Positions 1,900-26,108 of a stretch of DNA of 53,819 nt are shown in pieces (the first letter of the stretch is position 1; each line of letters opens with the position of its first letter). Made by a program: the position numbers and the translations under genes. Where the stretch lies: positions 1 to 53,819 of the forward strand of contig DAHVNW010000008.1 in the NCBI GenBank assembly GCA_027319095.1, in the 5' to 3' direction. The DNA is from a bacterium. GTDB taxonomy: Bacteria > SZUA-79 > Acidulodesulfobacterales > Acidulodesulfobacteraceae. The notes below the pieces were generated by a model. It was not told the origin of the DNA. It did no database searches and saw nothing but the letters and a program-made list of their open reading frames with translations.

Positions 1900-3147
1900 T
1901 TATAATATTATCGGGTGAAGGTCTATCGAAAAAATATTTTCGTTCCGTATATATTTATACTCGATTTTTAAACCGTGTTCTTCGAATATCCGTTTTGTAA
2001 TATAAAGCCCGAGACCGAATCCGTCCTTATTTTTAATGTTTGCATCCTTTGAAAACGGTTCGAACATCATGCTTTCCGAAATAGCCGGTTTATTTCCAGC
2101 ATTTATAAAGCTTAAAATGCCGTTTCTTATGTGGACGGTTACTTTTTCGTTATCGCCGAATTTAATCGCGTTATCGATTAAATTTTTTACGGCTATACTT
2201 AGCAGTTCGAAGTCGGCTTTAACGGAGTAATTTCTGTCTGCCGTAACCTCGATATTTTTATCTCCGCCCTCGCTTTCGTTTACGAACAGAAACTCTTTGG
2301 CCCTATCTATAACGTCGTCAAGGTCGCAAAGGGTTAAATTTAATTCCCTGTTTCCCGCCGCAATTTTTTCGGACGAAAATAGTTCGTTTATGAGAGTTTC
2401 CATTCTCGTGAAAATATCCGCAAACACTTTTTTCCTGTTTTCGTCCTCGTTTTTTAGCAGTTCCAAGGCAATTTTTCCTTTTGTAATGGGCGTTTTTAAT
2501 TCATGTGCTATATTTCTGATAAACCAGGTTCTCGCATTGAGAGTTTTTTTTACGCTGTCCACGGCCTCTTTAAATTCTTTAGCGATGTAGCCGATTTCGT
2601 CCTTTCTGCCGGTATATGCGTCTAAATTTACGTCGACGTCGCCGTTTTTAAATGCTTCTATTTTATTCCTAAGCCCGCTAAGAGGGCGTATAGAGCGGTA
2701 TATGCTTATATAAAGAAGAATAAGAAGAAAACATAGGCTTAAAGCTATAGCTAACAAAATTTCCTGCCTGTAATATGCCCCGCTGTTTCTTTTTAATAAA
2801 AAATCGCTGCGCCCGGTTTTTGATTTTAAGTATATATATTCGATTCCTTTAAACAGCAGGAGCGATAATGTATATTTAAGACGCGGCGGTTTTCTTTTTA
2901 AAAGGAGTTTTCCGCTTTCTAAAATTTTCAGTACGGTTTTTTTATTATTTATAATGTGTATTCCCAGAAACTTGCCGTCCCCCCATTTATTTTTTTTTGC
3001 TAAAAAGACGGTTTTTCTAATGAAATGAAAAGTTTCGATACGCGTTACTATCCTGTATGCAAAAAAAATAGAGAATAGAAGAATAATAAAAATCAATAAA
3101 AAAGCGATGTTTATTTTAAACAGTATGGAATGGATGTTAATCTTCAT
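1900..3147 (-). CDS. Sensor histidine kinase (2 TM, HAMP, HisKA, HATPase_c); candidate PhoR-like
   Basis: H-box FIRNIAHELKTPIT; ATP-lid NLIDNAIKFG...GFGLGLYITKRIFEEHG; two TM segments flanking a ~90-aa extracytoplasmic loop. Its start overlaps the RR stop by 11 bp. Confidence 0.85.
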   Translation of the reverse strand: MKINIHSILFKINIAFLLIFIILLFSIFFAYRIVTRIETFHFIRKTVFLAKKNKWGDGKFLGIHIINNKKTVLKILESGKLLLKRKPPRLKYTLSLLLFKGIEYIYLKSKTGRSDFLLKRNSGAYYRQEILLAIALSLCFLLILLYISIYRSIRPLSGLRNKIEAFKNGDVDVNLDAYTGRKDEIGYIAKEFKEAVDSVKKTLNARTWFIRNIAHELKTPITKGKIALELLKNEDENRKKVFADIFTRMETLINELFSSEKIAAGNRELNLTLCDLDDVIDRAKEFLFVNESEGGDKNIEVTADRNYSVKADFELLSIAVKNLIDNAIKFGDNEKVTVHIRNGILSFINAGNKPAISESMMFEPFSKDANIKNKDGFGLGLYITKRIFEEHGLKIEYKYIRNENIFSIDLHPIIL

Positions 3148-3817
3148 AAAATTTATATCCGTAACCCCTGATTGACTTAATATATATTGGATTTTTAGGG
3201 TCGTCGCCTATTTTCTTTCTAATTCTTCCTATTAAAACGTCCACGCTCCTGTCGATGCTTTCGTAGCTCATGGTTTTAATGTTTTCTAAGATAAAATCCC
3301 GTGTAATTACGCTGCCCCTGTTTTTATACAGTATAAGGAACAGTTCGTATTCGGCGGACGTTAAATCCAAGGTTTCGCCGGCTTTTTTTATTGCCATTTT
3401 ACCTTCGTCTATTTCAAAAAGATTCGTTTTGCCTTTTCCTCCGTTTTTCCTCCTGATTAGAGACCTTATCCGCGCCACTAATTCGCGCGGGTTATAAGGT
3501 TTAGCGACATAATCGTCGGCGCCTATTTCGAGTCCTGCAACTATGTCCGAATAATCGCCCCTTGCGGAAGATATAATGATAGGTATGCCGGAGGTGCGTG
3601 AAACGGTTTTGCAAATCTCTAAACCGTCCATATCCGGAAGAGTAAGGTCCAATATTAAAACGTCGAATCCCCCATTTTTTTTACTTATTGCGCCTAAACC
3701 TTCCGAGGCGTTTTCGAAATTCGTAAGTTCTATATTAAACCGATTTAGATATTCTTTTAAAAGTTCGGCGATTTCCCTATCGTCTTCTATCATTACGGCT
3801 TTTATCATATTTTCCAT
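3137..3817 (-). CDS. OmpR/PhoB-family response regulator (receiver + winged helix)
   Basis: Receiver motifs (VMIEDD, DVLILDLTLPDMDG, K in YVAKP) and a winged-helix C-terminus (YIKSIRGYGYKF). Operon with the HK and divergent from Pho-box copy 1. Confidence 0.9.
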   Translation of the reverse strand: MENMIKAVMIEDDREIAELLKEYLNRFNIELTNFENASEGLGAISKKNGGFDVLILDLTLPDMDGLEICKTVSRTSGIPIIISSARGDYSDIVAGLEIGADDYVAKPYNPRELVARIRSLIRRKNGGKGKTNLFEIDEGKMAIKKAGETLDLTSAEYELFLILYKNRGSVITRDFILENIKTMSYESIDRSVDVLIGRIRKKIGDDPKNPIYIKSIRGYGYKFYED

Positions 3818-3924
3818 AAATTTATATATATATTTTTTATTATATTATAATTATAGCGGGATAATGTAAACGAATAATAAATATATTATGAATAAGCAAA
3901 AAGGTATCGATGCAAAAATCGAGT

Positions 3925-3979
3925 GTTACAAAAATTTAACATAAATGTCATAAAAATGTAACATTAATTTGATAAAATT
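3925..3979 (+). promoter_or_regulatory. Pho-box-like array copy 1: five tandem 11-bp units (GTTACAaaaat TTAACAtaaat GTCATAaaaat GTAACAttaat TTGATAaaatt), last unit overlapping a TGnTAAAAT extended -10
   Basis: Direct 11-bp periodicity read from the sequence. It is one of eight near-identical copies in the window. It resembles E. coli Pho-box half-sites (TGTCATA + 4 bp). Confidence 0.6.
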
Positions 3980-4062: not shown

Positions 4063-4407
4063 ATGGAAGATTTGTCCGAATCATTTCAAAATTCCTTTAT
4101 GAATGAAGCGCAATACTTAAATAATAGCAAAATGGATAACGGTAAGGTCGCAGGCGTTGATTCGCCCGCCGCTTCCTCTGACATAAAGCCTTCGGCTTCA
4201 CAAACGTCTGACTGCGCATGCGGGAGAGTTCCTAAAAAATGCGCGATAACCGTAGAATGCGGGTGCAGGGAAAGTAACTTTTATATCCTGCTGACCGGGA
4301 AAGATATCGAAAACATATATGACAAGTTAATTAAAAAGTGCCCTTTATGCGGTTTTCCGACGACGGTTACTTTCGATTTCAGAGTTTCAACCATAACTGA
4401 ATATTAA
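4063..4407 (+). CDS. Small Cys-rich (zinc-ribbon-like) protein, paralog of 13845..14111
   Basis: The C-terminal ~50 aa (KKCAITVECGCRESNFYILLTGKDIENIYDKLIKKCPLCGFPTTVTFDF) aligns with the 13845 product (KNCVMNVKCSCEENNFNVLVSEEDVSRVYDRFAKKCINCGQPIKITFKF). Sits downstream of Pho-box copy 1. Confidence 0.55.
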   Translation: MEDLSESFQNSFMNEAQYLNNSKMDNGKVAGVDSPAASSDIKPSASQTSDCACGRVPKKCAITVECGCRESNFYILLTGKDIENIYDKLIKKCPLCGFPTTVTFDFRVSTITEY

Positions 4408-4532
4408 TATGGGCAAAAGTTAAGAGTGCAATTGCGGAACGTTTAGCATATCGCTTGAAAGGTTTCATCCGGCTATACATGAGATAAATAGATATTCGAC
4501 GATATAATTATTATATAATCTAAGGTTATCCC

Positions 4533-5387
4533 ATGCATGACGAGAAAGACCATATATTGACCTCTAAGAATACCATTTCGCATATAAAACTGCCGGCTTT
4601 ATATGAAAGCGAGCCGGCTTTTTCCGTAGTATTCGTAATAGGCATGCATAGGAGCGGAACGTCTCTTACTACCCGCATCGTGAATATAGCCGGATATACG
4701 ATTGGAAATTCTGCGGATATAATAGGACCGGATTCTGGCAATCCTACAGGATATTGGGAGCATCGTTCATTTGTTTCGCTTAATAGAAAAATAATTGCAT
4801 GCTATTTAATGCCGAAATTTTTATCCGCGCTCTTTTTTTCTAAACTTAAAAAGAAGGCGGTCGAATTGATTTCGAGTTTTAAAGATTGTCGCAAAATAGC
4901 TTTAAAGGACCCTATCGCTTCCATAACGCTGCCGTTTTGGATTAGTGCGGTCAGAGAGGCTCTGCCGGAAAGGGACGTTAAAATACTTGTTATAATATGT
5001 GTTCGCAATCCGCTCGACGTTTCTAAATCACTGCAAAACAGAGGTTTGATTATAACGAAAATTAATTGCGGCCTCTGGGAAAAATATATTTCGTCAGCTT
5101 TTAAAAATTCCGAAGGGTTGCCGAGGCACGTAGTTCATTACGAGAATTATTTCGATGGCGAATGCGATAACTTGATAAATAACTTAAGCTCTTTTCTGGG
5201 GATAAATTTAACTGTGGAGCAAGCCTTATGGATTAAAAGTTTTATCGACCCTAATTTAAGGGAAAGCGACATAGGCGACGGCATATGGAGAAGCAATCTT
5301 TCTATAGGTGCGAAGCAATTATATTTAAACCTGCTAAAGCAAAAAAATAAGAGAATAAAAAATAACGGTATGTTGAATTTAACATAG
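4533..5387 (+). CDS. Sulfotransferase-family protein (PAPS-binding 5'-PSB GMHRSGTS and 3'-PB RNPLDVSKS motifs)
   Basis: 284 aa; both sulfotransferase signature motifs are visible in the translation. Confidence 0.6.
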   Translation: MHDEKDHILTSKNTISHIKLPALYESEPAFSVVFVIGMHRSGTSLTTRIVNIAGYTIGNSADIIGPDSGNPTGYWEHRSFVSLNRKIIACYLMPKFLSALFFSKLKKKAVELISSFKDCRKIALKDPIASITLPFWISAVREALPERDVKILVIICVRNPLDVSKSLQNRGLIITKINCGLWEKYISSAFKNSEGLPRHVVHYENYFDGECDNLINNLSSFLGINLTVEQALWIKSFIDPNLRESDIGDGIWRSNLSIGAKQLYLNLLKQKNKRIKNNGMLNLT

Positions 5388-5423
5388 CTAAATCAAAATA
5401 ATCGGAATAATTATAATATTTAA

Positions 5424-5681
5424 ATGCGAAGAGGTTCTATTATGATAAACTTTAAGGAATTTTATAACGAAGAAAACCAGATAAGAGGGTGGATGTTTGC
5501 ACCAGAGGATTACGATACTGTTTTTGTCATAGGCAATATCAGCGAAGACGAAATACAGGACGCGATAGAAGACGATTATTGCGACGTCGTCAGATGCGAA
5601 AAGTATGTCGTGGAAAGCTGGAATATTCCCGAAGAAATCTTGGAAGAAATCGAAGCGGATAGCGGAAATGACATGGAATAA
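5424..5681 (+). CDS. Small acidic hypothetical protein
   Basis: 85-aa ORF, D/E-rich. The start may be the internal Met at 5442. Confidence 0.35.
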   Translation: MRRGSIMINFKEFYNEENQIRGWMFAPEDYDTVFVIGNISEDEIQDAIEDDYCDVVRCEKYVVESWNIPEEILEEIEADSGNDME

Positions 5682-5765
5682 TAATAAAATAGAGGCATCG
5701 ATAACAACCGTATCTAATTTTAATTCTTATATGGTTAATTCTTATTTCTAAGAAAGATAACGTCC

Positions 5766-5892
5766 AAAATTGCCGATAGAAAATTATTTTTCCCGATTTT
5801 AATTTTTAACCTATCCGGTTTCGTTCCCGCCTACGTGGTAATCCAGTGTTTATATATACGAAGCTATTTAAAAATTCCCATAGGCAATTTTG
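5766..5892. repeat. Inverted-repeat element A (left arm CAAAATTGCCGATAGAAAATTATTTTTC, right arm TTCCCATAGGCAATTTTG), upstream of the polyphosphate operon
   Basis: The 28-bp left arm is identical to 26111..26138. Arms are inverted copies about 18 bp long and ~80 bp apart. Confidence 0.6.
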
Positions 5893-5952
5893 TGATGACA
5901 TTGTAAAATTTATTAAATTAATATAATATGAAAAAATGGAGGGAAGCGGGCT

Positions 5953-6969
5953 ATGCCGAAAAAATCGTTAAATGAGGCAGATAAAAAAATGTCTGCGCCG
6001 GAGTTAATCTTTAAGATATTATTTTCCTTGACCGATAAAATAAAAAGCGATATTCCGGGAGTTATCGACGGGAAAAACGGCGATGCCCTCCATAATTTAA
6101 GGGTGAGGGCCAGGAGGATAAAAATTTTATTTAAGATATTCGGAAAATACCTGAGCGAAGACGGAATTACGTTCAAGAGGAAGTTTTCCAAGATAATGAA
6201 AGAGACTCAGCAAAAAAGAGATTTAGACGTTCTTTTTAGCTCGTTAAATTCCTGCATAAATAACGATAACGATAACGTTAGTGCCGAAGCCGCCAATAAT
6301 ACGGCTGCAAAAGATAAGGACGAGGACGGAGAAAAGAAAGGGGACGCGAACGCGGGCGCGGATGAAAACGTAAACGACAAAAAAGAAATAGTATCGGATA
6401 TCTTAAAAGAAATCGAGCTTGAGCAGGACAGGATGTTGTCTTTTCTCGGTTCCCGCGAATTCAACGGCTTTCTGCAGGACTGGGAAGAAGCCGTTTCAAA
6501 AGGCGTATTGTTTGCAGGCGATATATCCGACGCTTGTCCCGCCGAATATTTTTCTTTTAAGATAAATAAAATTTACAAGAAATTGCGAAAGTTTATTAAA
6601 AACGCTTCTTTCGACGACGAAGAATTGCACGAGTTAAGGCTGATTTTTAAGGAATTCAGATATACCCTCGAGTTTTCTGGCGGAACGTTTAAAGAAGATA
6701 TACCGTCTATAATTATAGAGGACGTAAAAAAAATTCAAGACGCGCTCGGAGGCGCCCACGATAAAATCTTTCAAATAAGCTATTTGAAGAAATTCGATGG
6801 CGGCAAAGAAATCAGGAAAGATATAAAAAAATCCCTCGAAAAAGACAGGGAAAAAGTCGTAAAATTGGCAGAAAAATTCAGGGAAGACGACAGGATAAAG
6901 TCTTTTATATACTCGCTGAGCGAATATAGTCGAAAACAAAATTCAAAACAAAATTATAATAAAGGTTAA
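5953..6969 (+). CDS. CHAD-domain protein (polyphosphate-granule associated)
   Basis: Conserved-His alpha-helical pattern (ALHNLRVRARRIKILFKIF..., HELRLIFKEFRYTLEF). Operon context with ppx/ppk. Confidence 0.65.
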   Translation: MPKKSLNEADKKMSAPELIFKILFSLTDKIKSDIPGVIDGKNGDALHNLRVRARRIKILFKIFGKYLSEDGITFKRKFSKIMKETQQKRDLDVLFSSLNSCINNDNDNVSAEAANNTAAKDKDEDGEKKGDANAGADENVNDKKEIVSDILKEIELEQDRMLSFLGSREFNGFLQDWEEAVSKGVLFAGDISDACPAEYFSFKINKIYKKLRKFIKNASFDDEELHELRLIFKEFRYTLEFSGGTFKEDIPSIIIEDVKKIQDALGGAHDKIFQISYLKKFDGGKEIRKDIKKSLEKDREKVVKLAEKFREDDRIKSFIYSLSEYSRKQNSKQNYNKG

Positions 6970-6972
6970 GCA

Positions 6973-8496
6973 TTGGAATTATTAAATAAATTTGCGACGA
7001 TAGATATGGGGAGCAATTCAGTAAAGCTTCAAATCGTCGAGGCAAATGGAAGCAATTGCGCTATTTTACAGGAATATAAGGAAACGTTAAGGATAGGCGA
7101 CGACTGTTTCAGATTCGGTTATATAACGGATGAGTCCAAAGAAAGGCTTTTTAAAGCGCTCAAGTTCGTCAAGAAAATCATAGAATTGCACCACGTAACT
7201 GAAGTTAAGGCTGTCGGAACGGCGGCTTTCAGAGAGGCAAAAAACAAGGAAGAGATAACGCTCGATATTAAAAAAAACTACGATATAGACTTAGATATAA
7301 TAAGCGGAATGGAAGAAGCAAGACTATCTTACTTAGCCGTTTCAAGAGAATTAGACCTTAAAGAATCGAATGCTTTAATATTGGATATAGGCGGCGGAAG
7401 CGCAGAATTTACGATAGTAAAGGGGGGGAAGGTAACGGCGTTCGAAAGTACTCCTCTTGGCAGTTTAAGGCTTAAAAACGAATTTAGGGACGAAATATCG
7501 GAAATAAAAAGTTATATAATGAAAGAACTTTCCCGGTTCGAAGGTTTTCGAGCGGAATATGCCGTCTGCATGGGCGGAAGCGTAAACGGTCTCGCCTCCG
7601 TTTATTTAAGGCGCGTTAACGGAAAAAAAACAGATTTCCGGATAAATTACGTAGATGGCAGTTTTTTAAAAAATTTTATCGAGGTTAATAAAAATGCCGC
7701 GGTAACCGATATGGAAAAAATAGCGGGAGTTGATCCGAAAAAGGCGGATATTATTCTTCCTTCCGCAGTAATACTTAACGAAATAATTAATTATTTTGGT
7801 TTAGACGGCTTTTATTCGTTTTCCGGCGGACTAAAAAGGGGCTTGTTGATAGATATTTTAAGTAAAAAGGGGTTTAATATGACCGTCCAAAAAAAATCCA
7901 GCGAAGAAAAAGAAGCAGATATGATTCTTTGGCTTACCGAAATCGGCAGAGAGTTCAAATTCGACGAAAATCATGCAAAACATGTTGCTTTTTTGTCGAA
8001 AGAGATTTTCTGTGCTCTTAAAGAAGCGTTAAACCTGAAAACGGAATATATTAACTATCTGATAGCGGCTGCAATGTTACACGACATAGGGAATTTTATT
8101 TCGTTTTCAAAGCACCACAAGCATTCGTTTTATCTTATAAAAAACATCGAGTTGCCGGGTTATAGCTGGTACGAAAGGGGCATTATAGCAAATATAGCAA
8201 GATACCACAGAAAAAGCCTTCCCAAAAAAAGCCATGATTTATATTCGGACGTCAAGGCCGAAGATATAGATGCGGTAGAGAAGCTGGCCTCGATACTCAG
8301 GCTTGCGGATGCGCTCGATAGTAGCCATAGCGGAATCATAAAAAACGTGAAGCTGTATGTTTCCAATAAAAGTATTTACATAAATCCGGCATCGGGCGGG
8401 GATATATCCTTTGAAGCCGAATCCTTCGACGCCAAAAAAGACCTGATGGAAAAGATTGCGGGAAAGCCCGTTTATCTCGAACTTAAAACTGCATGA
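6973..8496 (+). CDS. ppx: Exopolyphosphatase / guanosine pentaphosphatase (Ppx/GppA) with C-terminal HD domain
   Basis: N-terminal ASKHA fold (IDMGSNSVKLQIVE, LDIGGGSAEF). HD motif (MLHDIGNFISFSKHHKHS). Its stop overlaps the next start (ATGA). Confidence 0.8.
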   Translation: MELLNKFATIDMGSNSVKLQIVEANGSNCAILQEYKETLRIGDDCFRFGYITDESKERLFKALKFVKKIIELHHVTEVKAVGTAAFREAKNKEEITLDIKKNYDIDLDIISGMEEARLSYLAVSRELDLKESNALILDIGGGSAEFTIVKGGKVTAFESTPLGSLRLKNEFRDEISEIKSYIMKELSRFEGFRAEYAVCMGGSVNGLASVYLRRVNGKKTDFRINYVDGSFLKNFIEVNKNAAVTDMEKIAGVDPKKADIILPSAVILNEIINYFGLDGFYSFSGGLKRGLLIDILSKKGFNMTVQKKSSEEKEADMILWLTEIGREFKFDENHAKHVAFLSKEIFCALKEALNLKTEYINYLIAAAMLHDIGNFISFSKHHKHSFYLIKNIELPGYSWYERGIIANIARYHRKSLPKKSHDLYSDVKAEDIDAVEKLASILRLADALDSSHSGIIKNVKLYVSNKSIYINPASGGDISFEAESFDAKKDLMEKIAGKPVYLELKTA

Positions 8497-10103
8497 ACGA
8501 AAAAATTTTCTGCGTTATAGACGTCGGAGCCGGAAGCATAAGATGTCAGATTTCCGAAATTATACCAGTCCTTAAGCATCGCGTAAAAACGTTGGAGTAT
8601 ATAATTTTTCCTTTAAGTATCGGGATGGATACGTTCCTTAAAGGGTATATAGCTTTAGATACCGTTTATCTTGCGGCGGACATTTTCAATAAAATCAAGC
8701 TGAAATTCAAAGAATACAAAATACCGGAAAAAAATTACAGGGCGGTTTGCACGAGCGCCGTCAGAGACGCTGAAAACAAGCAGTTTTTCATTAACCATAT
8801 AAGGGTGAGGACGGGTATAGAACTGGAGATAATCGACGTAAACGACGAACTTTACATAAAATATCTCGGCATAAGCGAAACGCTTAAAGGGTTTAAAAAA
8901 ATGGAAAGCAGGGGAGCCGTATTGGTAAATCTTTCCAGCGGAAACGTCGGAATCAATATCCGGAAAAATAAAATCAGCCTTTTTTCGTCTACTCTTCCGT
9001 TCGGGGCGCTAAGAATTTTTCAACTCTTTAGCGACATAGAAGAAAGGGTTAAATACAGGGCATACGAGCAGTATATAAATAAATTAATCCTGCTCTTAAA
9101 AAAAAGCTGCGGCGATTACGGAAAAATATCGACAGTGGTCGGCTCGGATACCTCTACCGGACTATTGTTAAAAATATTCAATCCGGAAGGAAATTATTTC
9201 GATATATCGAGTCTGGTAAATCTTTATTCGGAAATAAAAACCATGTCTGCTGAAGAAATTAGCGCCAGACTGCCGATAAACGATTACGATGCTAAAATTT
9301 TAAAGCCGGTTTTATATCTTTATATTTCAATAATGAAATCGGTCGGGGCAAGGAAGCTTTATTTTTCCAATCAAAATTTTTCCGAACAGCTGACGCACTT
9401 TTATATCAAAAAAACCAAAGAAAAAAAATTTAATAAAAAACTCGTTAACTATTTTTTTTATTACGGAAAAAAATTTAATTTCGACGATAAGCATGCCAAA
9501 CAGGTCCTTTTATTCGCAAAGGAAATAGCGAGGTCATTAAAAAATATCCTTGCCATGAAGCCGCAGGAGCGAATCGTCCTTTCGGGAGCTTCGATCCTTC
9601 ACGACATAGGGTATTATACCAATATACGCGAACATAACGAGCATTCATACAGAATAGTAAACTCTTTGAATATACCTGGTTTGGACAGGGAAATGCTCGA
9701 GAATATCGCTATTTGCACATATTTTCACAGAAACGGGGATTATGCGGCGTCTAAAGGAACGGCGGGGTCTGAGTGGCATGCTAGGGACGGAATAAGCCGC
9801 ATTTTAAGCAATGCTCCTGGCGGCGGGGTAGGTGCCAAAATAGCCGCAAGCATTAGTCCGGAAAGAGAACTTACGATAAAAAAGATAGTTTCCATACTTA
9901 AGATAGCGGATGCTCTCGACGCAAGCCATATGCAGCTAATAAACGGCATAGACGTCGATGTACTTGACAAGGCTGTAAAGATAACGGCGGCAGCTTCCAT
10001 TAATCCGTTCCTCGAAATAAAAATATTTAAATTAAAATCCAACGATTTTCTCGAAACGTTTGGAATACCCGTCGAACTTACCGTAAAACTCGATTATGAA
10101 TAG
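8493..10103 (+). CDS. Second Ppx/GppA-HD family phosphatase (tandem paralog)
   Basis: IDVGAGSIRCQI N-terminus; HD motif ILHDIGYYTNIREHNEHSY. Overlaps ppk1 by 8 bp. Confidence 0.75.
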   Translation: MNEKIFCVIDVGAGSIRCQISEIIPVLKHRVKTLEYIIFPLSIGMDTFLKGYIALDTVYLAADIFNKIKLKFKEYKIPEKNYRAVCTSAVRDAENKQFFINHIRVRTGIELEIIDVNDELYIKYLGISETLKGFKKMESRGAVLVNLSSGNVGINIRKNKISLFSSTLPFGALRIFQLFSDIEERVKYRAYEQYINKLILLLKKSCGDYGKISTVVGSDTSTGLLLKIFNPEGNYFDISSLVNLYSEIKTMSAEEISARLPINDYDAKILKPVLYLYISIMKSVGARKLYFSNQNFSEQLTHFYIKKTKEKKFNKKLVNYFFYYGKKFNFDDKHAKQVLLFAKEIARSLKNILAMKPQERIVLSGASILHDIGYYTNIREHNEHSYRIVNSLNIPGLDREMLENIAICTYFHRNGDYAASKGTAGSEWHARDGISRILSNAPGGGVGAKIAASISPERELTIKKIVSILKIADALDASHMQLINGIDVDVLDKAVKITAAASINPFLEIKIFKLKSNDFLETFGIPVELTVKLDYE

Positions 10104-12129
10104 CATATATGTTTTTAACAACAGGGAACTGTCATGGTTAAATTTTAACGAAAGAGTGCTTATGCAGGCGGCGGACGAAACCGTTCCGCTCTGCGAAAGG
10201 CTTAAATTTATAGCAATACACTCGACGAATCTCGACGAATTTTTCATGATTAGGGTTGCAGGCTTAAAAGACTTAGTTTCGGCTCATTACGACGAAAAGG
10301 ATATGTCGGGATTTACGCCGCCTGAAGTCTTGAAGGAAATTTCCGTCAGGGTTCGCCGTCAGGTCGAAAAGAAGGCGGAGATTTTTAATTCGGTTTGCGA
10401 GGAACTTAAGTCGCGTGGAGTTTATATTTTTGATAAGGAAATTTCTTTTTTAGATATGGAAATTTTGGACGAGATATTTTACGCCGAAATTTTTCCATTA
10501 ATTACGCCGCTAATATTGACGAATTTAGACAAAATGCCGTTTATTTTCAACATGAAATTGTGTTTTTTTATCGAACTCGAAAGGGAAGGCAGAATGTTCT
10601 ATTCGCTGATTATCGTTCCAGAAAACGTAAAGAAGTTTTTTAAGATTAAAAAATTGGGGAATTCATACTATTTTACCGTCGAGAACATAATAGAAAGATA
10701 CATCGACAAAATTTTTCCCGGCTATAAAATAAAGGATTTTTTTTTATTCAGGGTGACAAGAAACGCAGATCTGCCTATTAAGCACGAGGACGTGGAGGAC
10801 TTGTTATCGGCAATAGAAGAAAATATTTCGAGCAGAAAATGGAGCAATATAGTCAGGCTCGAAATAGACAGGGCGCACCCCATAGATTTGACCGGAAAAA
10901 TAAAATCTTACCTTGGAACCGAAAGCGGAAACGGAAGCGGTTTGAATGAAGACTTATATATCACCGGGTTACCGCTTGACCTTTCTTTTTTGTTTAATAT
11001 CAAAGAGAAAAAGAAAGGTTTATATTATAAGGCGTTTAAACCCGCCGTCCCCGGTTATCTTAAGGGAGCGAATATTTTTGACGCCGCAAAGAAGAAAGAT
11101 ATTATCCTTTTCAGGCCTTATACCGACTTTAAAATTATCTCGAAATGGATTTCGGATGCCGGAAACGATAAAGACGTTCTTTCTATAAAAATGACTCTTT
11201 ACAGGACCGATAAAAATTCCAAAATAGTGGAAGCGCTGGCAAACGCCGCTTCCAAAGGAAAACACGTCTGTGTCGTCGTAGAGCTTAAGGCAAGGTTCGA
11301 CGAGGAGAATAACGTTAAATGGGCGAAAAAGCTCGAAGAGACGGGATGTATCGTAACATACGGCTTTTCCGACAAGAAAATACACGCGAAGACCTTTTTG
11401 ACGGCGAGAAAAGAAAACGGCAGAATCGTAAGATACGTTCATATATCGACTGGAAACTACAACGAATTTACGGCTGGAATTTATACGGACGTCGATTATA
11501 TTACGTCGGAGGAAGAGACCGGCGCGGAAATAACGAATCTGTTCAACTACATGATGGGATATGCGGACGTGTATGAGTGGAACAGGCTCAAAGTATCGCC
11601 GGTAAACTTAAGACAGTCGTTATACGACCTAATAGGTTTCGAAACGAATGAGGCGGCATCCGGCAGACCTGCAAAAATAATAATTAAAGTCAATTCCGTA
11701 TTCGACGGGAAAATAGAAAATAAGATTTACGAGGCGGGCGCCGCCGGTGCGGATATTAAGATGATAGTCAGGGGAATATGTTCTTTAATGCCAGGGGTGG
11801 AAGGCTTAAGCGAAAACATTTCGGTAAAAAGTATAATAGGAAGATTTTTGGAACACGCAAGGATATATTATTTTTACGCAGGCGGGGCGGAAAAGGTTTT
11901 TATATCTACCGCAGATTTGATGGCAAGAAATCTCGGTAAAAGGGTGGAATTATTTTACGAGGTTAAAGATGCGGCGGCAAAAGAGGTGCTCATGAACATA
12001 CTGGAATGCAATCTTAAAGACGATATGAAATCATGGGTTCTTACCGGAGAAAACTACGTTAAGACCGGCGTCGGAAAGAATGTCAAAAACGCCGGATTTA
12101 ACTGTCAAGAGCAAAATTTTCAAAAATAA
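10096..12129 (+). CDS. ppk: Polyphosphate kinase 1
   Basis: 677 aa. N-terminal FNNRELSWLNFNERVL...LKFIAIHSTNLDEFFMIRVAGL. Two PLD-like HxK-type regions (KIHAKTFLT; RFLEHARIYYF). Confidence 0.9.
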   Translation: MNSIYVFNNRELSWLNFNERVLMQAADETVPLCERLKFIAIHSTNLDEFFMIRVAGLKDLVSAHYDEKDMSGFTPPEVLKEISVRVRRQVEKKAEIFNSVCEELKSRGVYIFDKEISFLDMEILDEIFYAEIFPLITPLILTNLDKMPFIFNMKLCFFIELEREGRMFYSLIIVPENVKKFFKIKKLGNSYYFTVENIIERYIDKIFPGYKIKDFFLFRVTRNADLPIKHEDVEDLLSAIEENISSRKWSNIVRLEIDRAHPIDLTGKIKSYLGTESGNGSGLNEDLYITGLPLDLSFLFNIKEKKKGLYYKAFKPAVPGYLKGANIFDAAKKKDIILFRPYTDFKIISKWISDAGNDKDVLSIKMTLYRTDKNSKIVEALANAASKGKHVCVVVELKARFDEENNVKWAKKLEETGCIVTYGFSDKKIHAKTFLTARKENGRIVRYVHISTGNYNEFTAGIYTDVDYITSEEETGAEITNLFNYMMGYADVYEWNRLKVSPVNLRQSLYDLIGFETNEAASGRPAKIIIKVNSVFDGKIENKIYEAGAAGADIKMIVRGICSLMPGVEGLSENISVKSIIGRFLEHARIYYFYAGGAEKVFISTADLMARNLGKRVELFYEVKDAAAKEVLMNILECNLKDDMKSWVLTGENYVKTGVGKNVKNAGFNCQEQNFQK

Positions 12130-12250
12130 AAACTAAAAGCTATCAAAGGATAATTAAACAAAAAAAGCATCCAATTTATTTATTTTTCCTCGTTCACTTC
12201 CATTTACAGGCGTTTATCTGCAAATAAATAAGTAAATCGGCAATTGGATT

Positions 12251-12305
12251 ATTACAAAAAATTAACATAAACTTAACACAATTGTAACATTAGTTATGTT
12301 ATGAT
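12251..12305 (+). promoter_or_regulatory. Pho-box-like array copy 2a (ATTACAaaaaa TTAACAtaaac TTAACAcaatt GTAACAttagt ...)
   Basis: Same 11-bp unit structure. Lies ~160 bp upstream of copy 2b. Confidence 0.5.
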
Positions 12306-12410
12306 TTTAACAATACTGTAAGCGAAATTTGTTTCGCCTCCATGTTTTACCCCACATCCCGGGATTGATGATTTAATTCATCCCGGGATTAATTTTATTA
12401 AATCTAAAAT

Positions 12411-12465
12411 CGTAACAAAATTTAACATAAACGTCATAAAGCTGTAACATTTGTTTTATATAATA
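12411..12465 (+). promoter_or_regulatory. Pho-box-like array copy 2b with TATAAT -10 (12459..12464), upstream of the phosphoesterase gene
   Basis: GTAACAaaat TTAACAtaaac GTCATAaagct GTAACAtttgt TTTATAtaat. Confidence 0.6.
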
Positions 12466-12551
12466 TATATATAGCAAAACTAAGCGTGCGCGCATGCGTA
12501 TGACGATTATGAAATTGAATTATGAAATTAAAAAGAAAAGGAGGCCGGTAT

Positions 12552-13736
12552 ATGAACAGAAGGGAATTCGTAAAACTCACGGGATTAAGCCTATTATCGG
12601 GGTTGTTTTTAAACGGCGGTAGTTTTAAAAAAGCTGAAGCATCGGAAGATTTAAGCAAAAGGAAAACCTTGGGCGGCAATTTTAAAAAACCCGAACATAT
12701 CGTTTTGATAATGCAGGAAAACAGGAGTTTCGACCACTATTTCGGCAAAATGGACGGAACGGTAGACGGACAGCCCAAAAGGGTGATGGAACTTGGAGTT
12801 ACCGACGGAATGGGCGGAAGCGTAAAACCTTACGATTTAGGGTTCAATTACGTCACTCCGAACCATGTGGACCCAAATCATTCCTGGGATGGCCTTCATA
12901 CCATATATAATAACGGTAAAATGGACGGATACTTTTTAAACGGCATAAACCAGCCGGTAAACGATTATAAAGTAATAATGGGTTATTACGACGCCAAAAA
13001 AGCCCTTGCGCCATATTATTATTACGCCAGAAATTATACTCTCTGTCAAAATTATTTCCATTCGATTATGGCGCCTACCCAGCCTAACAGGCTTTATCAG
13101 ATTGCGGGGCAGTCTAACGGACACATTACCGATGCCCCTCCGCATAAGCCTTATGAGTTCCCGACAATTTTTAACAGGCTCGAAAAAGCCAAAATCTCAT
13201 GGAAGATATATGTTCAGGGATGGCCTAATCCTAAAAAATACGTTCACCATTGGGTGCCGGTTATATGGTTCGATAGCTTTATGAAGGATAAAAAGCTATG
13301 GAATAAAATCAGGCCTGCGGACGAATATTTCGAAGACGTAAAAAAAGGAACGCTTCCTCGATTCAGCTGGCTCGTGCCTGATTTTAAACATTCGGAACAT
13401 CCGCCGGCAGACGTTAAAACCGGTATGCTTTACACCGTCAAAAGAATAGAAGTTCTAAGAAAAAGCCCGCTGTTTTCAAAATCGGCAATATTTTTGAACT
13501 GGGACGAGTGCGGGGGGTTTTACGACCACGTCGTTCCGCCGGTCGTCGATTATTACGGTCTGGGTATGCGCGTCGGATGCATAATTATTTCCCCCTTCGT
13601 TAAAAATGGCTACATATCCAACGTAAGGCACGAACACGCTTCCGTTCTTAAATATGCCGAAAACCTCTGGGGTATCGAACCGCTGACCGACAGGGACAGA
13701 TATGCTAACGGTTTCGAAGATGCGTTTAGCTTATAA
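12552..13736 (+). CDS. Tat-exported phosphoesterase (phospholipase C / acid phosphatase AcpA family)
   Basis: Twin-arginine signal MNRREFVKLTGLSLLSG. Family signature MQENRSFDHYFG. GGAGG Shine-Dalgarno 8 nt upstream of the ATG at 12552, which is preferred over the longer track ORF from 12522. Confidence 0.8.
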   Translation: MNRREFVKLTGLSLLSGLFLNGGSFKKAEASEDLSKRKTLGGNFKKPEHIVLIMQENRSFDHYFGKMDGTVDGQPKRVMELGVTDGMGGSVKPYDLGFNYVTPNHVDPNHSWDGLHTIYNNGKMDGYFLNGINQPVNDYKVIMGYYDAKKALAPYYYYARNYTLCQNYFHSIMAPTQPNRLYQIAGQSNGHITDAPPHKPYEFPTIFNRLEKAKISWKIYVQGWPNPKKYVHHWVPVIWFDSFMKDKKLWNKIRPADEYFEDVKKGTLPRFSWLVPDFKHSEHPPADVKTGMLYTVKRIEVLRKSPLFSKSAIFLNWDECGGFYDHVVPPVVDYYGLGMRVGCIIISPFVKNGYISNVRHEHASVLKYAENLWGIEPLTDRDRYANGFEDAFSL

Positions 13737-13844
13737 TATTTAAAATACATAACGTATGACGTTATATTATAGTAATTATAATAGCCGCAATTAAAAATTG
13801 CCTTTTAAGGTAGTTCGCATAAAAAAACGGGTGGTGAGATTGAT

Positions 13845-14111
13845 ATGGCAGAAAGTTTGTCTTTTATCGATAAAATAATAGAAAAGGCAAGTCAAAATGC
13901 CGTTTTAATGAGAGCAAAATATCTTTCCCTCGTTAAAAGACAAATAAAATCTTCCGAATCTAAAAATTGCGTTATGAACGTAAAATGCTCATGCGAAGAA
14001 AACAATTTCAACGTTTTAGTATCGGAAGAAGATGTATCCAGGGTTTACGACAGGTTTGCCAAAAAATGCATAAATTGCGGACAGCCGATTAAAATAACGT
14101 TTAAGTTCTAA
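13845..14111 (+). CDS. Small Cys-rich (zinc-ribbon-like) protein, paralog of 4063..4407
   Basis: See the alignment under 4063. Immediately downstream of the phosphoesterase gene. Confidence 0.55.
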   Translation: MAESLSFIDKIIEKASQNAVLMRAKYLSLVKRQIKSSESKNCVMNVKCSCEENNFNVLVSEEDVSRVYDRFAKKCINCGQPIKITFKF

Positions 14112-14248: not shown

Positions 14249-14731
14249 ATGAGAAACATAAAAATACGCTTAAATCCACCAGTGTTTACAATATTTATTT
14301 TTAGTTTCGCAATTTTTGCTCTTACGGTTATGATTAACAAAAACGTATCGGCGCAAGGCGTGCGTCAAGGCAAAGCCGCTTACGGTTCAAAGCTGATAAA
14401 CCGCGGCAGGTATTTAGTAGAGGATGTTGGCAAATGCTCGGATTGCCATACGCCCAGAGACAGGTTCGGCCGTCCCATAAAAGCGAAATGGCTCGAAGGA
14501 ACTGTCTTAAATATGAAGCCTATTCATCCGGTACCCGGTTGGGCTGAGAAAAGCGTTAATATCGCCGGCCTTCCAAAGGGTTGGACTGAAAACAATATGA
14601 TTAAATTTTTAACGACGGGCATAAATCCAAAAGGCAAATTTGCCAGACCGCCTATGCCTGTTTACAGGCTTACAAAAGAGGATGCTATTGCCGTTACTTA
14701 TTATCTTAAAAGCTTAAAACCTAAAAAATAA
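14249..14731 (+). CDS. Mono-haem c-type cytochrome with signal peptide
   Basis: CSDCH haem-binding motif, N-terminal hydrophobic leader, AGGAGG Shine-Dalgarno. Confidence 0.7.
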   Translation: MRNIKIRLNPPVFTIFIFSFAIFALTVMINKNVSAQGVRQGKAAYGSKLINRGRYLVEDVGKCSDCHTPRDRFGRPIKAKWLEGTVLNMKPIHPVPGWAEKSVNIAGLPKGWTENNMIKFLTTGINPKGKFARPPMPVYRLTKEDAIAVTYYLKSLKPKK

Positions 14732-18045: not shown

Positions 18046-18825
18046 ATGAAAGTAAACCACAATATTTCATATTCTTCAAAGGCAATACTTTTTTTGTTTC
18101 TTCTTATTTTATCCGTAACGTTTTTAATACCGATAACTTTTTTAACTTCTTCGGCTTTCGCAATGCAAAAATGGCAGGCAAATTACGACAAATCGTTAAA
18201 ACTTTTTAAATCTAAAAAATATGATTCTGCATTGAAATTTGCATTAACCGGGGTCAAGGAAAACAAAAACCCATATACGCTGGAATTAACGGGAAATATA
18301 CTTCAGCTTTTAAAAAAATTTAAATCGAGCAGCCGTTATTTTAAGAAATCTATTGCGGCAGCCGTATCCGGCTCGACAAAAACAGGTTCAAAAGAACAGA
18401 TAATAGTAAAAAATAAAATGAAGTTTATAAAAATGGTTAAAAATAATATAGGGCTAAATTATTTATTGACCGGAAATATGCTGCTAAGAAAAGCGAAAAC
18501 CAAGGCGGCTATTAAAAGCTATAAGGAAGGAATGACGTATGCCGACGAGAAACGATTGTCGGATATACTTATGCTAAGCTCTGCCTTGGCTTATGAAAAC
18601 TTAGGAAAATTTAACAATGCGGTAAATTATGCAAAAAAAGTCACCGATAACGATCCAAAAAGCGCTTTCGCTTATTTTATTAAAGGCAGAGGCGAATATG
18701 ATTTGAAAGAAATAGACGCTTCGATAAAAGACCTTAAAAAAGCCTTAAAATTGAAACCCGAAAATAAATTATTTAAAAAATCGCTTAAAACTGCCGAATT
18801 AACAGAAAAATCGATAAAGAGGTAG
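18046..18825 (+). CDS. TPR-repeat protein with N-terminal signal/TM
   Basis: Hydrophobic N-terminus; repeated A/Y/L helical TPR-like pattern. Confidence 0.55.
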   Translation: MKVNHNISYSSKAILFLFLLILSVTFLIPITFLTSSAFAMQKWQANYDKSLKLFKSKKYDSALKFALTGVKENKNPYTLELTGNILQLLKKFKSSSRYFKKSIAAAVSGSTKTGSKEQIIVKNKMKFIKMVKNNIGLNYLLTGNMLLRKAKTKAAIKSYKEGMTYADEKRLSDILMLSSALAYENLGKFNNAVNYAKKVTDNDPKSAFAYFIKGRGEYDLKEIDASIKDLKKALKLKPENKLFKKSLKTAELTEKSIKR

Positions 18826-18987: not shown

Positions 18988-19260
18988 ATGAAATTTGTTC
19001 CGTCAAGAGATTTAAGGCTTAAAACGGCCGAAGTGTTCGAAGATTTAAAAAAAGAAGGCGAAATTATCGTAACTTCAAACGGCATACCTGTTTCTTTAGT
19101 TATGCCTATCGACGAAAGGAATTTAGAACATACTCTATTTTTAATAAGATCGATAAAGACAAAGGGCGCTATAAGAAATATGAGAGAAACATTAATAGAA
19201 AACGAATTAACAAACGAAGATATAGTAGAAGAAATTAATGCAGTAAGAGAGGGAAAATGA
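18988..19260 (+). CDS. Phd/YefM-like antitoxin
   Basis: MKFVPSRDLRLKTAEVFEDL...EIIVTSNGIPVSLVMPIDE fits the Phd/YefM N-terminal pattern. Overlaps the next gene (ATGA). Confidence 0.5.
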   Translation: MKFVPSRDLRLKTAEVFEDLKKEGEIIVTSNGIPVSLVMPIDERNLEHTLFLIRSIKTKGAIRNMRETLIENELTNEDIVEEINAVREGK

Positions 19261-19655
19261 CATTCGTAATCTGTACGGATGTTTTTATGCAGGGTTTTGT
19301 GCCTAACGGCAGCTATAGTATGCGTCTTATGGATTATTTATCGGACGAGAGGTTCATTCTTGCCTTAGACGACAGGATTTATTTCGAATATGTTGCCATG
19401 TTAAGACGGCAAAGATTCGGGTTCGACAAAAACGACGTCAACTATTTTTTAAAATTTATAAAGGAAACCGCTAAATTTGTTACCGCCGAAAAACTTAAAA
19501 TCAGTTTAATCGATTTGCACTATTTGAAATTTGTCGAAGCCGCAAAAAGCGTAAAAGCCGACGCTTTAATCACAAAAAACACAAACGGATTTAAATCTGC
19601 AATAGGAGTTATTCCCGTTTTGACACCGAGGGAAGTTTTCGAAAAATTGATTTAA
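19257..19655 (+). CDS. PIN-domain-like toxin (VapC-like)
   Basis: N-terminal acidic D (ICTDV) and C-terminal ADALITKNTNGF, resembling the VapC D.LIAA...LVT.N..DF motif. Translationally coupled to the antitoxin. Confidence 0.4.
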   Translation: MTFVICTDVFMQGFVPNGSYSMRLMDYLSDERFILALDDRIYFEYVAMLRRQRFGFDKNDVNYFLKFIKETAKFVTAEKLKISLIDLHYLKFVEAAKSVKADALITKNTNGFKSAIGVIPVLTPREVFEKLI

Positions 19656-22622: not shown

Positions 22623-23348
22623 ATGAATGCTTTATTTTCTACATTCGGCTTTCTGTTAAGGGGCGGACCGCTTATGTATATTATGTTTGCGCTCCTGCTC
22701 GTTGCGTTGACCGTCATAATAGAAAGGTTTTATTTTCTGCACGGCGTTATAAGAACAGGTTCGGTGTTTAGCGAGGAAATTAAAAAAATACTTAAAAGCG
22801 ACGGAGGTTTGGAAAAAGCAAAGAGCTATTGTTCGGAAAACCCGGGAATTTTTTCGTCGCTTCTTTTAGTGGGCTTTAATAATATCTGCCTTACCAAGGA
22901 CGAAAGAGACGAAGTTATGACCGAAGAGGCAATGAAGCACACAAGGGAAATGGAAAGGTATATGTGGGTCATCGATACTTTAATCACAATGGCGCCCCTG
23001 CTCGGTCTTCTTGGGACCATTATAGGCATAATGGTTTCGTTCAACATTATAAGCAAAACAGGAGTTTCAGATCCTACGGCAATCACGGGAGGCGTCGCCC
23101 TTGCGCTTTTAAATACCGCTTCAGGATTAGTTATAGCGATAATATCGCTCGGCTTTTTTAATTATTTCCAGAACAAGATTTTATCCATTAAAAAACAGAT
23201 GGAATATGTAACCCTGCAGTTCGAAAACTTTATTACGAGAAATGATTTAACAGATAAAAATAATTTTAATACTAACGGTAAAAACAGAATTAACCTCGAA
23301 AACAGGAAAACCGCTTCTGCGGTAGCCGGAGAGTTAAGCCGGGCATAA
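22623..23348 (+). CDS. exbB: MotA/TolQ/ExbB proton-channel protein
   Basis: Three TM helices; conserved MAPLLGLLGTIIGI and ALLNTASGL segments. Confidence 0.85.
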   Translation: MNALFSTFGFLLRGGPLMYIMFALLLVALTVIIERFYFLHGVIRTGSVFSEEIKKILKSDGGLEKAKSYCSENPGIFSSLLLVGFNNICLTKDERDEVMTEEAMKHTREMERYMWVIDTLITMAPLLGLLGTIIGIMVSFNIISKTGVSDPTAITGGVALALLNTASGLVIAIISLGFFNYFQNKILSIKKQMEYVTLQFENFITRNDLTDKNNFNTNGKNRINLENRKTASAVAGELSRA

Positions 23349-23365
23349 CGGGCTGGCGGAAGAAT

Positions 23366-24076: not shown

Positions 24077-24097
24077 AATTTTAAAGGTAAAAAAACT

Positions 24098-24502
24098 ATG
24101 AAATTAACCGAAGAAAACAGCATTAAAAGAGCAAGAATAGAGTTAGTTCCGATGATAGACACGATGTTTTTTCTTTTGATTTTTTTTATAATGGTAACCC
24201 TTACTATGGTTCATCAAAAAGGCTTAAGCGTCAATCTGCCTAAATCGGGGCAGGGAAGCCATGTTAAGATTCATAATTTCGTCGTAACCCTTAAAAAAAA
24301 CGGATCGGTATATTTAAACAAAGAAAAAACCTCCCTGCGCAATCTTCCCGCCCTTTTAAAACAAAAAATTGCAAGTAAAAAAGACCTGATAATTATTAAC
24401 GGCGATAAAATGATTTATCTGAAAAAAGTGGTAAAAACGATAGACGACATAAAAAAAGCCGGTTTTTACAAAATTTCCATCGCCGTAAAACCCGCAAAAT
24501 AA
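24098..24502 (+). CDS. exbD: ExbD/TolR biopolymer transport protein
   Basis: VPMIDTMFFLLIFFI TM segment followed by a periplasmic domain. Confidence 0.85.
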   Translation: MKLTEENSIKRARIELVPMIDTMFFLLIFFIMVTLTMVHQKGLSVNLPKSGQGSHVKIHNFVVTLKKNGSVYLNKEKTSLRNLPALLKQKIASKKDLIIINGDKMIYLKKVVKTIDDIKKAGFYKISIAVKPAK

Positions 24503-24538
24503 AATATTCGGAATTATTTAATTTTCATTATTATAATT

Positions 24539-26098: not shown

Positions 26099-26108
26099 AA
26101 ATATTTAA

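Follow-up and report, generated by a model that had tools for sequence, protein, structure and literature searches.

The window analysed here is the whole stretch of 53,819 nucleotides; its GC content is ~37%, as in Ca. Acidulodesulfobacterium (PMC6776010). It encodes two small cysteine-rich proteins, ORF A and ORF B, which lie among the following features (PWM, score in a position-weight scan):

1900..3817, minus strand: divergent two-component system, the presumed box-binding regulator (Pfam, NCBIfam)
1900..3147, minus strand: ArsS-family histidine kinase (NCBIfam ArsS_fam_HK, 314 bits against a cut-off of 250)
3137..3817, minus strand: OmpR-family response regulator (Pfam)
3923..3966, plus strand: box copy 1, four 11-bp-periodic repeats, 96 nt before the ATG of ORF A (PWM 62.7)
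4063..4407, plus strand: ORF A, 114 aa, the A-type paralogue (ORF list)
4234..4380, plus strand: Cys4 core of ORF A, residues 58-106, with C66, C68, C93 and C96 (BLASTP, alignment columns)
12249..12292, plus strand: box copy 2a, upstream of a short structured RNA (PWM 56.6)
12315..12402, plus strand: candidate small RNA or leader, with an invariant 5' ACUGUAAGC, a CCUCC motif, a GC hairpin and a T-run
12409..12452, plus strand: box copy 2b, upstream of the phosphoesterase gene (PWM 56.9)
12522..13736, plus strand: phosphoesterase PF04185 (PLC/acid-phosphatase family), upstream of ORF B (Pfam, E 1.2e-76)
13845..14111, plus strand: ORF B, 88 aa, the B-type paralogue (ORF list)
13962..14108, plus strand: Cys4 core of ORF B, residues 40-88, with C48, C50, C75 and C78 (BLASTP, alignment)
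14249..14731, plus strand: cytochrome c-like gene, downstream of ORF B (Pfam Cytochrom_C, E 5e-4)
24537..26942, plus strand: box, MFS and PHP operon (PWM 65.3, Pfam, NCBIfam)
24665..26098, plus strand: Pi:H+ symporter-like MFS (TIGR00887, 314 bits, below the cut-off)
26226..26942, plus strand: PHP phosphoesterase (Pfam)

The first-pass annotation had claimed that the C-terminal ~50 residues of the two products are alignable, and BLASTP of A against B bears this out: the ungapped alignment spans residues 58-106 of A and 40-88 of B, with 21 of 49 positions identical (43%), 65% positives and an E-value of 2e-16. The residue pattern it had given is also right, except for an offset of one position (L-x4-D, not L-x5-D). 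In a MAFFT alignment the N-terminal helices also pair up ('LSESFQNSFMNEAQYLNNSK' of A with 'IEKASQNAVLMRAKYLSLVK' of B); the homology therefore extends over the entire protein. ORF B consists of a helix (residues 3-36) and the Cys4 core; ORF A has a short N-terminal helix, a disordered Ser/Ala-rich linker and the C-terminal Cys4 core, the linker containing a low-complexity insertion of ~26 residues (MAFFT) and an additional CxC (DCACG). A tblastn search of the window for a third paralogue returns only A and B; a boxed 98-aa ORF (50536..50832), considered as a further copy, is unrelated to either.

Five cysteines had been described as conserved. All five are common to A and B, but only four, arranged as CxC-x24-CxxC, are invariant family-wide, the first (K-x-C; C42 of ORF B) being replaced by Ala in members P0019, P0026 and P0027; the invariant residues in the family alignment are C, C, D, Y, K, C, C and F. 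AlphaFold predicts an N-terminal helix and a beta-beta-alpha-beta core in which the CxC lies at the end of strand 1 and the CxxC in the loop leading from the helix to strand 3; the AF2 model of ORF B has a mean pLDDT of 81, and the core of ORF A (58-106) has the same predicted topology (pLDDT 76-84). This prediction departs from the zinc-ribbon fold that had been suggested: in a classical zinc ribbon a CxxC/CPxC knuckle occupies each of two hairpin turns, whereas the first pair here is CxC, and none of the zinc-ribbon Pfam models matches significantly. The four-Cys set probably binds zinc. We rejected the possibility of a secreted or membrane protein, as members have neither a signal peptide nor a TM or hydrophobic segment (GRAVY -0.2 to -0.5).

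ORF A has a ribosome-binding site (GGAG) 8 nt upstream of its ATG, and that of ORF B is GGTGGTGAG; the exact ORF A protein is recorded in NCBI, ENA and Logan assemblies. Among nine B-type orthologues dN/dS is 0.05-0.21, with synonymous sites near saturation. The purifying selection and the conserved ribosome-binding sites agree with the earlier view that these are functional genes. That A and B are instead spurious or decaying ORFs without a protein product could be argued from the copy in locus L023, in which the start codon and the N-terminal half are missing; this reading conflicts with the dN/dS values, the conserved ribosome-binding sites, the residues invariant in four or five subfamilies and the confident AF2 fold, and because of the selection signal we regard it as effectively refuted.

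Homologues outside this genome, on which the first-pass annotation had made its proposal depend, are found by profile search (HMMER), in few clusters and from acid-mine MAGs. A set of 5.8 billion proteins contains 25 family clusters at the 90% identity level, and HMMER, run exhaustively over 1.84 billion representatives, detects 8 clusters at the 50% level; the orthologues of ORF B form 15 clusters at 63-70% identity plus one remoter cluster, P0016, at 52%. All members come from acid-mine-type MAGs, one named member being Ca. Acididesulfobacter diazotrophicus, and a genome often contains two paralogues. The impression that no named family applies also holds, that is, Pfam, NCBIfam and PADLOC give no significant match to either ORF or to 13-18 family members; a PDB profile search at E-values up to 10 returns only two matches, both at chance level. 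In the supplements of the metatranscriptome paper on Ca. Acidulodesulfobacterales, no family gene is listed and phoU, phoB and phoR rows are absent. We conclude that A and B belong to a genuine family, so far undescribed and very narrow in its distribution, restricted to Ca. Acidulodesulfobacterales and related acid-mine MAGs.

Both paralogues are linked to a Pho-box-like module, as had been noticed: copy 1 precedes ORF A, and copies 2a and 2b precede the phosphoesterase gene that lies before ORF B. The repeats of copy 1 (TGTTACA / TTTAACA / TGTCATA / TGTAACA, then a -10-like TAAAAT) have three mismatches to the E. coli Pho box consensus. The boxes share the defining features of a Pho box, that is, 7-bp direct repeats with an 11-bp period that overlap the -35 region, with a -10-like hexamer immediately 3'. 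Copy 1 would drive ORF A and probably also the sulfotransferase-CHAD-Ppx-Ppx-PPK1 genes; copy 2b would drive the phosphoesterase gene and probably ORF B as second cistron, and the interval 13736-13845 contains neither a box nor a terminator-like site. The position-weight scan identifies five further boxes in the window (0 in five shuffles). Matches to the E. coli Pho box number three, all within the modules, against 0.12 expected; B. subtilis-type TT(A/T/C)ACA-N5 repeats number 14, against 4.3 expected. The association recurs elsewhere: when the 320 nt upstream of each non-redundant family copy are searched, 16 of 18 have a box, located 49-271 nt upstream (binomial P ~5e-25). Acid-mine bacteria thus place the family gene almost always directly behind a phosphate-starvation-type box. 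Two exact-pattern scans of metagenome contigs yielded no pstS-linked box.

The arrangement of box 2a and the candidate RNA is kept in nine loci. An alignment of these 9 distinct loci supports the GC hairpin (12354-12391, followed by the T-run) with 16 pairs, 6 of which show compensatory changes (RNAalifold); Rfam at the gathering threshold identifies tRNAs only, none at the candidate RNA. The structured RNA adjoins family genes in the nine loci and is their 5' leader in two of them (L005 and L024).

The genes that follow the family member differ between genomes and include the symporter and PHP genes, a polyP operon, and GGDEF-EAL, fn3 and cytochrome c genes. The phosphoesterase upstream of ORF B has a twin-arginine-like N-terminus and matches the NCBIfam PC_PLC and acid_phos_Burk models below their cut-offs; its adjacency to a family gene is unique to this window, so we rejected the earlier suggestion that the family is a partner of the secreted phosphoesterase. 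In most relatives the MFS-PHP operon begins with a B-type small gene (absent there in the window), and in Acididesulfobacter the family gene lies 24 nt upstream of PHP. In L023 a cytochrome c gene (1942-2376) follows the family copy (1536-1667), as with ORF B.

Two-component genes adjoin family members in the window and in L005, L021 and L023, and the OmpR-family response regulator encoded beside ORF A presumably binds the boxes. By model the response regulator is not PhoB (TIGR02154, 141 bits; cut-off 296) and the kinase is not PhoR (75 bits; cut-off 334). Together with the ArsS-family score, which passes its cut-off, these values invite the reading that the box is not phosphate-type, with a kinase that senses acid or metal stress and a regulon for acid, iron or envelope stress to which the small protein belongs; the boxes at TonB, ExbBD and TBDR genes and the acidophily of the host lineage (PMC6776010) are consistent with this. 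However, phosphorus functions, that is, a symporter-like MFS, two phosphoesterase classes and a whole polyP operon, dominate the boxed genes (Pi:H+ symporter-like MFS, PHP, PF04185 phosphoesterase, CHAD-Ppx-Ppx-PPK1, TBDR and ExbB-TonB-ExbD), and the boxes resemble canonical Pho boxes. In addition, Campylobacter senses phosphate with a non-classical two-component system (PhosS/PhosR). We consider an acid or metal stress regulon unlikely.

Our preferred reading, to which we assign a probability of roughly 40%, is that the paralogues are controlled by a Pho-like operator and are cytoplasmic, metal-clamped accessory or feedback proteins of a Pi-limitation-type regulon. A and B would be small soluble proteins in which an N-terminal amphipathic helix packs on a compact beta-beta-alpha-beta domain; the CxC...CxxC set, on loops at one end of the domain, would most likely clamp one Zn(II), possibly Fe. 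The four-repeat, 11-bp-periodic operator would control transcription directly and would presumably be occupied by the response regulator beside ORF A, so that the protein would be made whenever the phosphate-limitation-type regulon is on. That regulon would comprise the Pi:H+ symporter, PHP and PLC-type phosphoesterases, polyP kinase/phosphatases, the TonB system and the small RNA. Because the box is constant and the partner gene variable, a general accessory or feedback role by protein-protein contact seems most likely; by such contact the protein could adjust the activity of the kinase/regulator pair or of the machinery for Pi uptake (cf. PmrD; PhoU and Pit-accessory proteins). Thus, we infer that the Pho-like two-component system acts directly on the family genes, whose product is probably a metal-stapled, protein-binding accessory/feedback factor.

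Our working analogies are PmrD and MgrB, small proteins that connect or feed back on two-component systems, and the Pi-transport accessories PhoU and PhoU_div (the latter the 'Pit accessory protein', whose gene opens the orfA-pit operon). As in these cases, the family would consist of lineage-specific small proteins encoded by direct response-regulator targets; its genes often lie beside two-component genes or at the head of a Pi transporter operon. The family shares neither sequence nor fold similarity with these, which are all-helical (PhoU, PhoU_div), a beta-barrel (PmrD) or a membrane peptide (MgrB). ACT/RAM-like ferredoxin-fold modules, defined by a beta-alpha-beta-beta-alpha-beta fold and a family model match, were also compared (TM1266, the NikR C-domain, Lrp/AsnC RAM and ribosomal protein S6). 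If the preferred reading is correct, the phosphate-starvation response of this acid-mine lineage, which is uncultivated and ecologically important, would gain a previously unnamed core member, and the Pho-type operator and regulon of the lineage would be defined; small regulator-induced proteins often tune two-component systems, and outside model organisms most have yet to be discovered. A family so small and so confined taxonomically is of limited general significance unless either a kinship with CSL or a regulatory mechanism can be shown. A bolder version, that is, a new response-regulator-induced connector/feedback class, with non-classical phosphate sensing by an ArsS-family kinase, descent as a bacterial CSL (Kti11/DPH3) offshoot and, jointly with the box-driven small RNA nearby, a two-part output layer of the Pho response in Ca. 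Acidulodesulfobacterales, strikes us as a long shot.

A role in metal handling, which we judge rather unlikely, would have the Cys cluster bind Zn, Fe, Cu or As(III) and buffer or deliver it, either as a metallochaperone that serves metal-dependent phosphoesterases of the same regulon (trinuclear PHP, the PF04185 enzyme) or as a sink for metals freed by polyphosphate hydrolysis in a metal-rich acid-mine habitat. In its favor are the Cys content (four invariant, one near-invariant) with a CxC typical of metal-binding proteins, the proximity to PHP in Acididesulfobacter and in the MFS-PHP operons of most other genomes, and the position of ORF A, with its additional linker CxC, at the head of the polyP operon; a polyP-based model of metal detoxification also exists for acidophiles. 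However, a single CxC/CxxC set at the end of a domain looks structural, not exchangeable, neither window paralogue adjoins PHP, the partner genes vary (GGDEF-EAL, fn3 and cytochrome c among them), and Pfam and NCBIfam show no likeness to known metallochaperone families. PhnA/YjdM is a small Cys4 protein with no assigned role in the E. coli phn (Pho regulon) cluster, and the family resembles it as a small Cys4 protein from a Pho-regulated gene cluster; however, PhnA has two N-terminal CxxC knuckles and an SH3-like C-terminal domain, whereas the Cys domain of the family is C-terminal and begins with CxC, and the PhnA/YjdM models (PF08274/PF03831) give no match at E-values up to 1 among 18 members. 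The DksA/TraR C4 zinc finger (PF01258; CxxC-x17-CxxC) likewise gives no match at E-values up to 1, and its Cys spacing differs.

The basic B-type members (pI 9.0-9.2) and the adjacent structured RNA would suit a nucleic-acid-binding protein, for instance one that partners or chaperones the small RNA behind the box, or a small co-regulator that binds DNA, but ORF A (pI 4.9) and P0016 (pI 5.7) are acidic, no known nucleic-acid-binding fold or family is matched, and the adjacency may simply reflect a common regulon island; we think this very unlikely. Equally improbable in our estimation is a redox-active Fe(Cys)4 protein, that is, a bacterial relative of CSL (Kti11/DPH3) acting as a rubredoxin-type one-electron carrier, with which the cytochrome c genes after ORF B and the L023 copy would agree. 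The eukaryotic CSL zinc finger is the nearest sequence pattern, at sub-threshold scores: Zn_ribbon_CSL (PF05207) stays below its gathering threshold (best E-value 0.024; E < 1 in 2 of 18 members), and the C-S-L tripeptide at the last Cys is absent, the family having C-G-x, C-N-D or C-H-R. The four-Cys arrangement of that model (CxC ... CxxC) is present, and like Kti11/DPH3 (~80 aa) the family is small, with one putative metal site formed from CxC and C-P-x-C in a common order (strand, CxC, G/x-D/E-x-F strand, linker, CPxC, I-x-V-x-F strand). In hhalign, C48, C50, C75 and C78 of ORF B are in register with C25, C27, C47 and C50 of Kti11 (P 0.0014-0.002), and the score of 21.8 is higher than any obtained with shuffled Kti11, be it shuffled in full (150 sequences) or with the Cys fixed (150 sequences).

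The first-pass annotation described two small Cys-rich proteins as paralogues that share their C-terminal ~50 residues:

4063..4407 (+), ORF A, 114 aa
13845..14111 (+), ORF B, 88 aa

BLASTP bears out this relationship: residues 58-106 of ORF A and 40-88 of ORF B align without gaps with 43% identity and 65% positives (E 2e-16), and the residue pattern proposed for the pair is right overall, with one spacing to be corrected (L-x4-D instead of L-x5-D). In a multiple alignment the N-terminal helix is also alike in the two proteins, the main difference being a stretch of low complexity inserted into the linker of ORF A; tblastn finds no third paralogue in the window. Shine-Dalgarno sequences precede both genes. 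Among nine B-type orthologues the pairwise dN/dS is 0.05-0.21, with synonymous sites near saturation; this purifying selection excludes a non-coding or spurious ORF, in line with the first-pass annotation.

With ORF B as the query, a word-indexed search of 5.8 billion proteins identifies 16 clusters, of which P0016 is 52% identical and the other 15 are 63-70% identical; with ORF A as the query, the sole match is ORF A itself. A profile search brings the family to 25 clusters. When 1.84 billion representatives at 50% identity were scanned exhaustively with HMMER, only 8 clusters came up at E <= 0.001, so the family is genuine, yet very narrow. The sequences all come from metagenome-assembled genomes, which bear the label 'Deltaproteobacteria bacterium' or 'bacterium', and one cluster member is annotated as Candidatus Acididesulfobacter diazotrophicus; the GC content of the window (~37%) matches that of the sister genus Ca. 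Acidulodesulfobacterium (35.5-37.4%; PMC6776010). The family contains at least four subfamilies, that is, the B-type, the A-type (ORF A and clusters P0020, P0021 and P0028), the 'MKNTAF' type (P0016 and P0018) and the Acididesulfobacter type (P0019 and P0027); two types occur together in several genomes, including that of the window. The members are lineage-restricted, small, soluble Cys4 proteins under purifying selection.

The Pho-box-like module reported for this region is a real element. It consists of four 7-bp repeats with 11-bp spacing (TGTTACA, TTTAACA, TGTCATA, TGTAACA) and has a -10-like hexamer at a constant distance downstream. With a weight matrix derived from six copies in the window, eight sites are identified there, and five shuffles yield none. 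Together the eight sites outline a regulon.

Box sites in the window
3923-3966, before ORF A
12249-12292, before a short RNA
12409-12452, before the phosphoesterase
17778-17821, before a TPR protein (18046..18825)
19773-19816, before a TonB-dependent receptor (19881..22367)
22454-22497, before exbB-tonB-exbD (22623..24502)
24537-24580, before a Pi:H+ symporter-like MFS protein and PHP (24665..26942)
51009-50966 (-), before an unrelated Lys/Glu-rich 98-aa ORF (50536..50832, -)

The E. coli Pho box consensus has three matches, all within the modules (0.12 expected), and the B. subtilis TT(A/T/C)ACA-N5 repeat has 14 sites (4.3 expected). Phosphorus functions predominate among the boxed genes, which include the Pi:H+ symporter-like MFS protein (TIGR00887, 314 bits, below the cut-off), the PHP metallophosphoesterase, the PF04185 phosphoesterase and the CHAD-Ppx-Ppx-PPK1 operon. 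The divergent two-component pair encodes an OmpR-family response regulator (3137..3817, -) and a kinase (1900..3147, -) that exceeds the NCBIfam cut-off for the ArsS family (314 vs 250 bits) and falls far short of PhoR. 'Pho' is, therefore, a functional label with good support that makes no claim of orthology, and a non-classical kinase seems to control the phosphate-type regulon to which the boxes belong. A sulfotransferase-like protein (PF00685, E 3e-5) and an acidic 85-aa ORF without a family match are located between ORF A and CHAD-Ppx-Ppx-PPK1, within 4533..5681 (+). Two of the boxed genes are separated by a PhdYeFM-PIN toxin-antitoxin pair (18988..19655, +), and in L008, a locus from a relative, a comparable pair is found after the family gene.

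We examined 27 loci from relatives; after removal of redundant loci, 18 family gene copies remained. Of these, 16 are preceded by a same-strand box at a distance of 49-271 nt; given a background density of ~1 box per 7 kb, the binomial P is ~5e-25, an optimistic value because the genomes are related. One of the two exceptions is ORF B, the second cistron after the boxed phosphoesterase, with neither a box nor a terminator-like site between the two genes. The other (L023 1509..1670) is a truncated copy without an in-frame start codon that retains the C-terminal Cys core only, possibly a decaying paralogue; like ORF B, it immediately precedes a gene for cytochrome c. The gene that follows the family gene differs between genomes.

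Genes following the family gene
Pi:H+ symporter and PHP: most genomes
PHP alone: Acididesulfobacter
Membrane GGDEF-EAL protein: L017, L018
1210-aa fn3 protein: L024
Toxin-antitoxin, then TonB-dependent receptors: L008
Sulfotransferase and polyP operon: ORF A (window)
Cytochrome c: ORF B (window) and the L023 copy

The family gene adjoins two-component genes in the window, L005, L021 and L023. The operator, not any enzyme, is the constant partner of the family gene and, as judged from promoter sequences, the family genes are immediate targets of this putative Pho-box-type operator. The protein in L017 (1663..3951, 762 aa, 21 nt after the family gene), like that in L018, belongs to one sublineage and was judged GGDEF-EAL-like by eye; L015 encodes a 112-aa N-terminal remnant of such a protein (10285..10623).

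Among 18 representatives of the family, CxC, D, Y, K, CxxC and F are invariant. The first Cys of the earlier pattern is replaced by Ala in three of them, so four Cys, not the five originally counted, define the family. The family proteins contain no hydrophobic segment, and their pI values range from 4.9 (ORF A) to 9.2. Using the family alignment, AlphaFold2 predicts the following elements for ORF B (mean pLDDT 81):

3-36, helix
41-47, strand
55-60, strand
64-71, helix
83-87, strand

In the model of ORF A, this beta-beta-alpha-beta core recurs (pLDDT 76-84), and the N-terminal half is disordered. The CxC is predicted at the turn between strands 1 and 2 and the CxxC in the loop between the helix and strand 3; this topology would bring both to one end of the sheet, which fits a single metal clamp. 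The zinc ribbon suggested from the sequence, in its classical two-knuckle form, is not supported by this core; PhnA/YjdM and DksA/TraR are also unsupported as identities.

The first-pass annotation recognised no named family, and we likewise obtained no significant match to Pfam, NCBIfam or PADLOC models or to PDB sequences; Foldseek against the PDB gave no match under E 0.5. In sequence pattern, the family comes nearest to the CSL zinc finger (Kti11/DPH3), one of the Pfam matches below threshold (best E 0.024; 2 of 18 members). With Kti11 and DPH3 sequences that were checked against the PDB, hhalign brings the four Cys into register along with the Phe and the I-x-V-x-F strand at the end (P 0.0014-0.002, probability only 14-18%). 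None of 150 full or 150 Cys-fixed shuffles of Kti11 reaches the score of 21.8; structure searches gave no match to Kti11. We regard CSL as the apparent closest known pattern and do not claim that the family belongs to it. None of the libraries searched has a name or model for the family, and we found no paper describing it; a small Cys4 protein that is restricted to one lineage and belongs to a stress regulon is, even if undescribed, no new kind of biology.

A distinct '2a-type' box is followed by a conserved RNA of ~80 nt, which starts ~7 nt downstream of the -10.

Loci of the RNA
Window, 12315..12402 (+)
L001, 9753
L005, 9802
L012, 9663
L014, 1631
L015, 11163
L017, 5544
L020, 4388
L024, 7903

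Its features are an invariant 5' ACUGUAAGC, a CCUCC (anti-Shine-Dalgarno-like) motif and a GC hairpin, then a T-run; compensatory changes occur in 6 of 16 hairpin pairs, and no Rfam family matches. The small Cys gene of L005 and that of L024 have this RNA as their 5' leader. We regard the RNA as a candidate for a small RNA or an attenuator under Pho control. The by-product of this analysis, that is, a defined operator with its regulon and a conserved structured RNA under box control, with compensatory changes, may equal the protein in usefulness.

We consider it likely (probability about 0.8) that the family proteins bind one structural metal ion and, jointly, that they are induced with the phosphate-limitation regulon. 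A less likely view of the regulon is that it senses acid or metal stress and not phosphate; the ArsS-family kinase speaks for this view, and the phosphorus functions of the boxed genes speak against it. As to the role of the protein, we tentatively favor a factor that would act via protein-protein contact, as an accessory to the machinery for sensing or uptake or in feedback on it. PmrD and MgrB are regulator-induced connector proteins, and PhoU and Pit-accessory proteins are encoded before Pi transporters; the likeness to all of these is by analogy alone, without sequence or fold support. A metal-handling role linked to polyP hydrolysis and metal-dependent phosphoesterases is a less likely alternative; it would suit the polyP operon after ORF A and the genomes with PHP after the family gene, and less so the loci in which other genes follow. 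Less likely still is a CSL-like carrier with a redox-active Fe(Cys)4 site, a reading that would draw on the Kti11/DPH3 alignment. The protein might instead, with similarly low probability, be a partner of the neighboring small RNA, binding RNA or DNA; the two loci with the RNA as leader would be consistent with this.

Four tRNA genes are clustered at the end of the window (52823..53387, +), and a fifth is located at 48427..48499.
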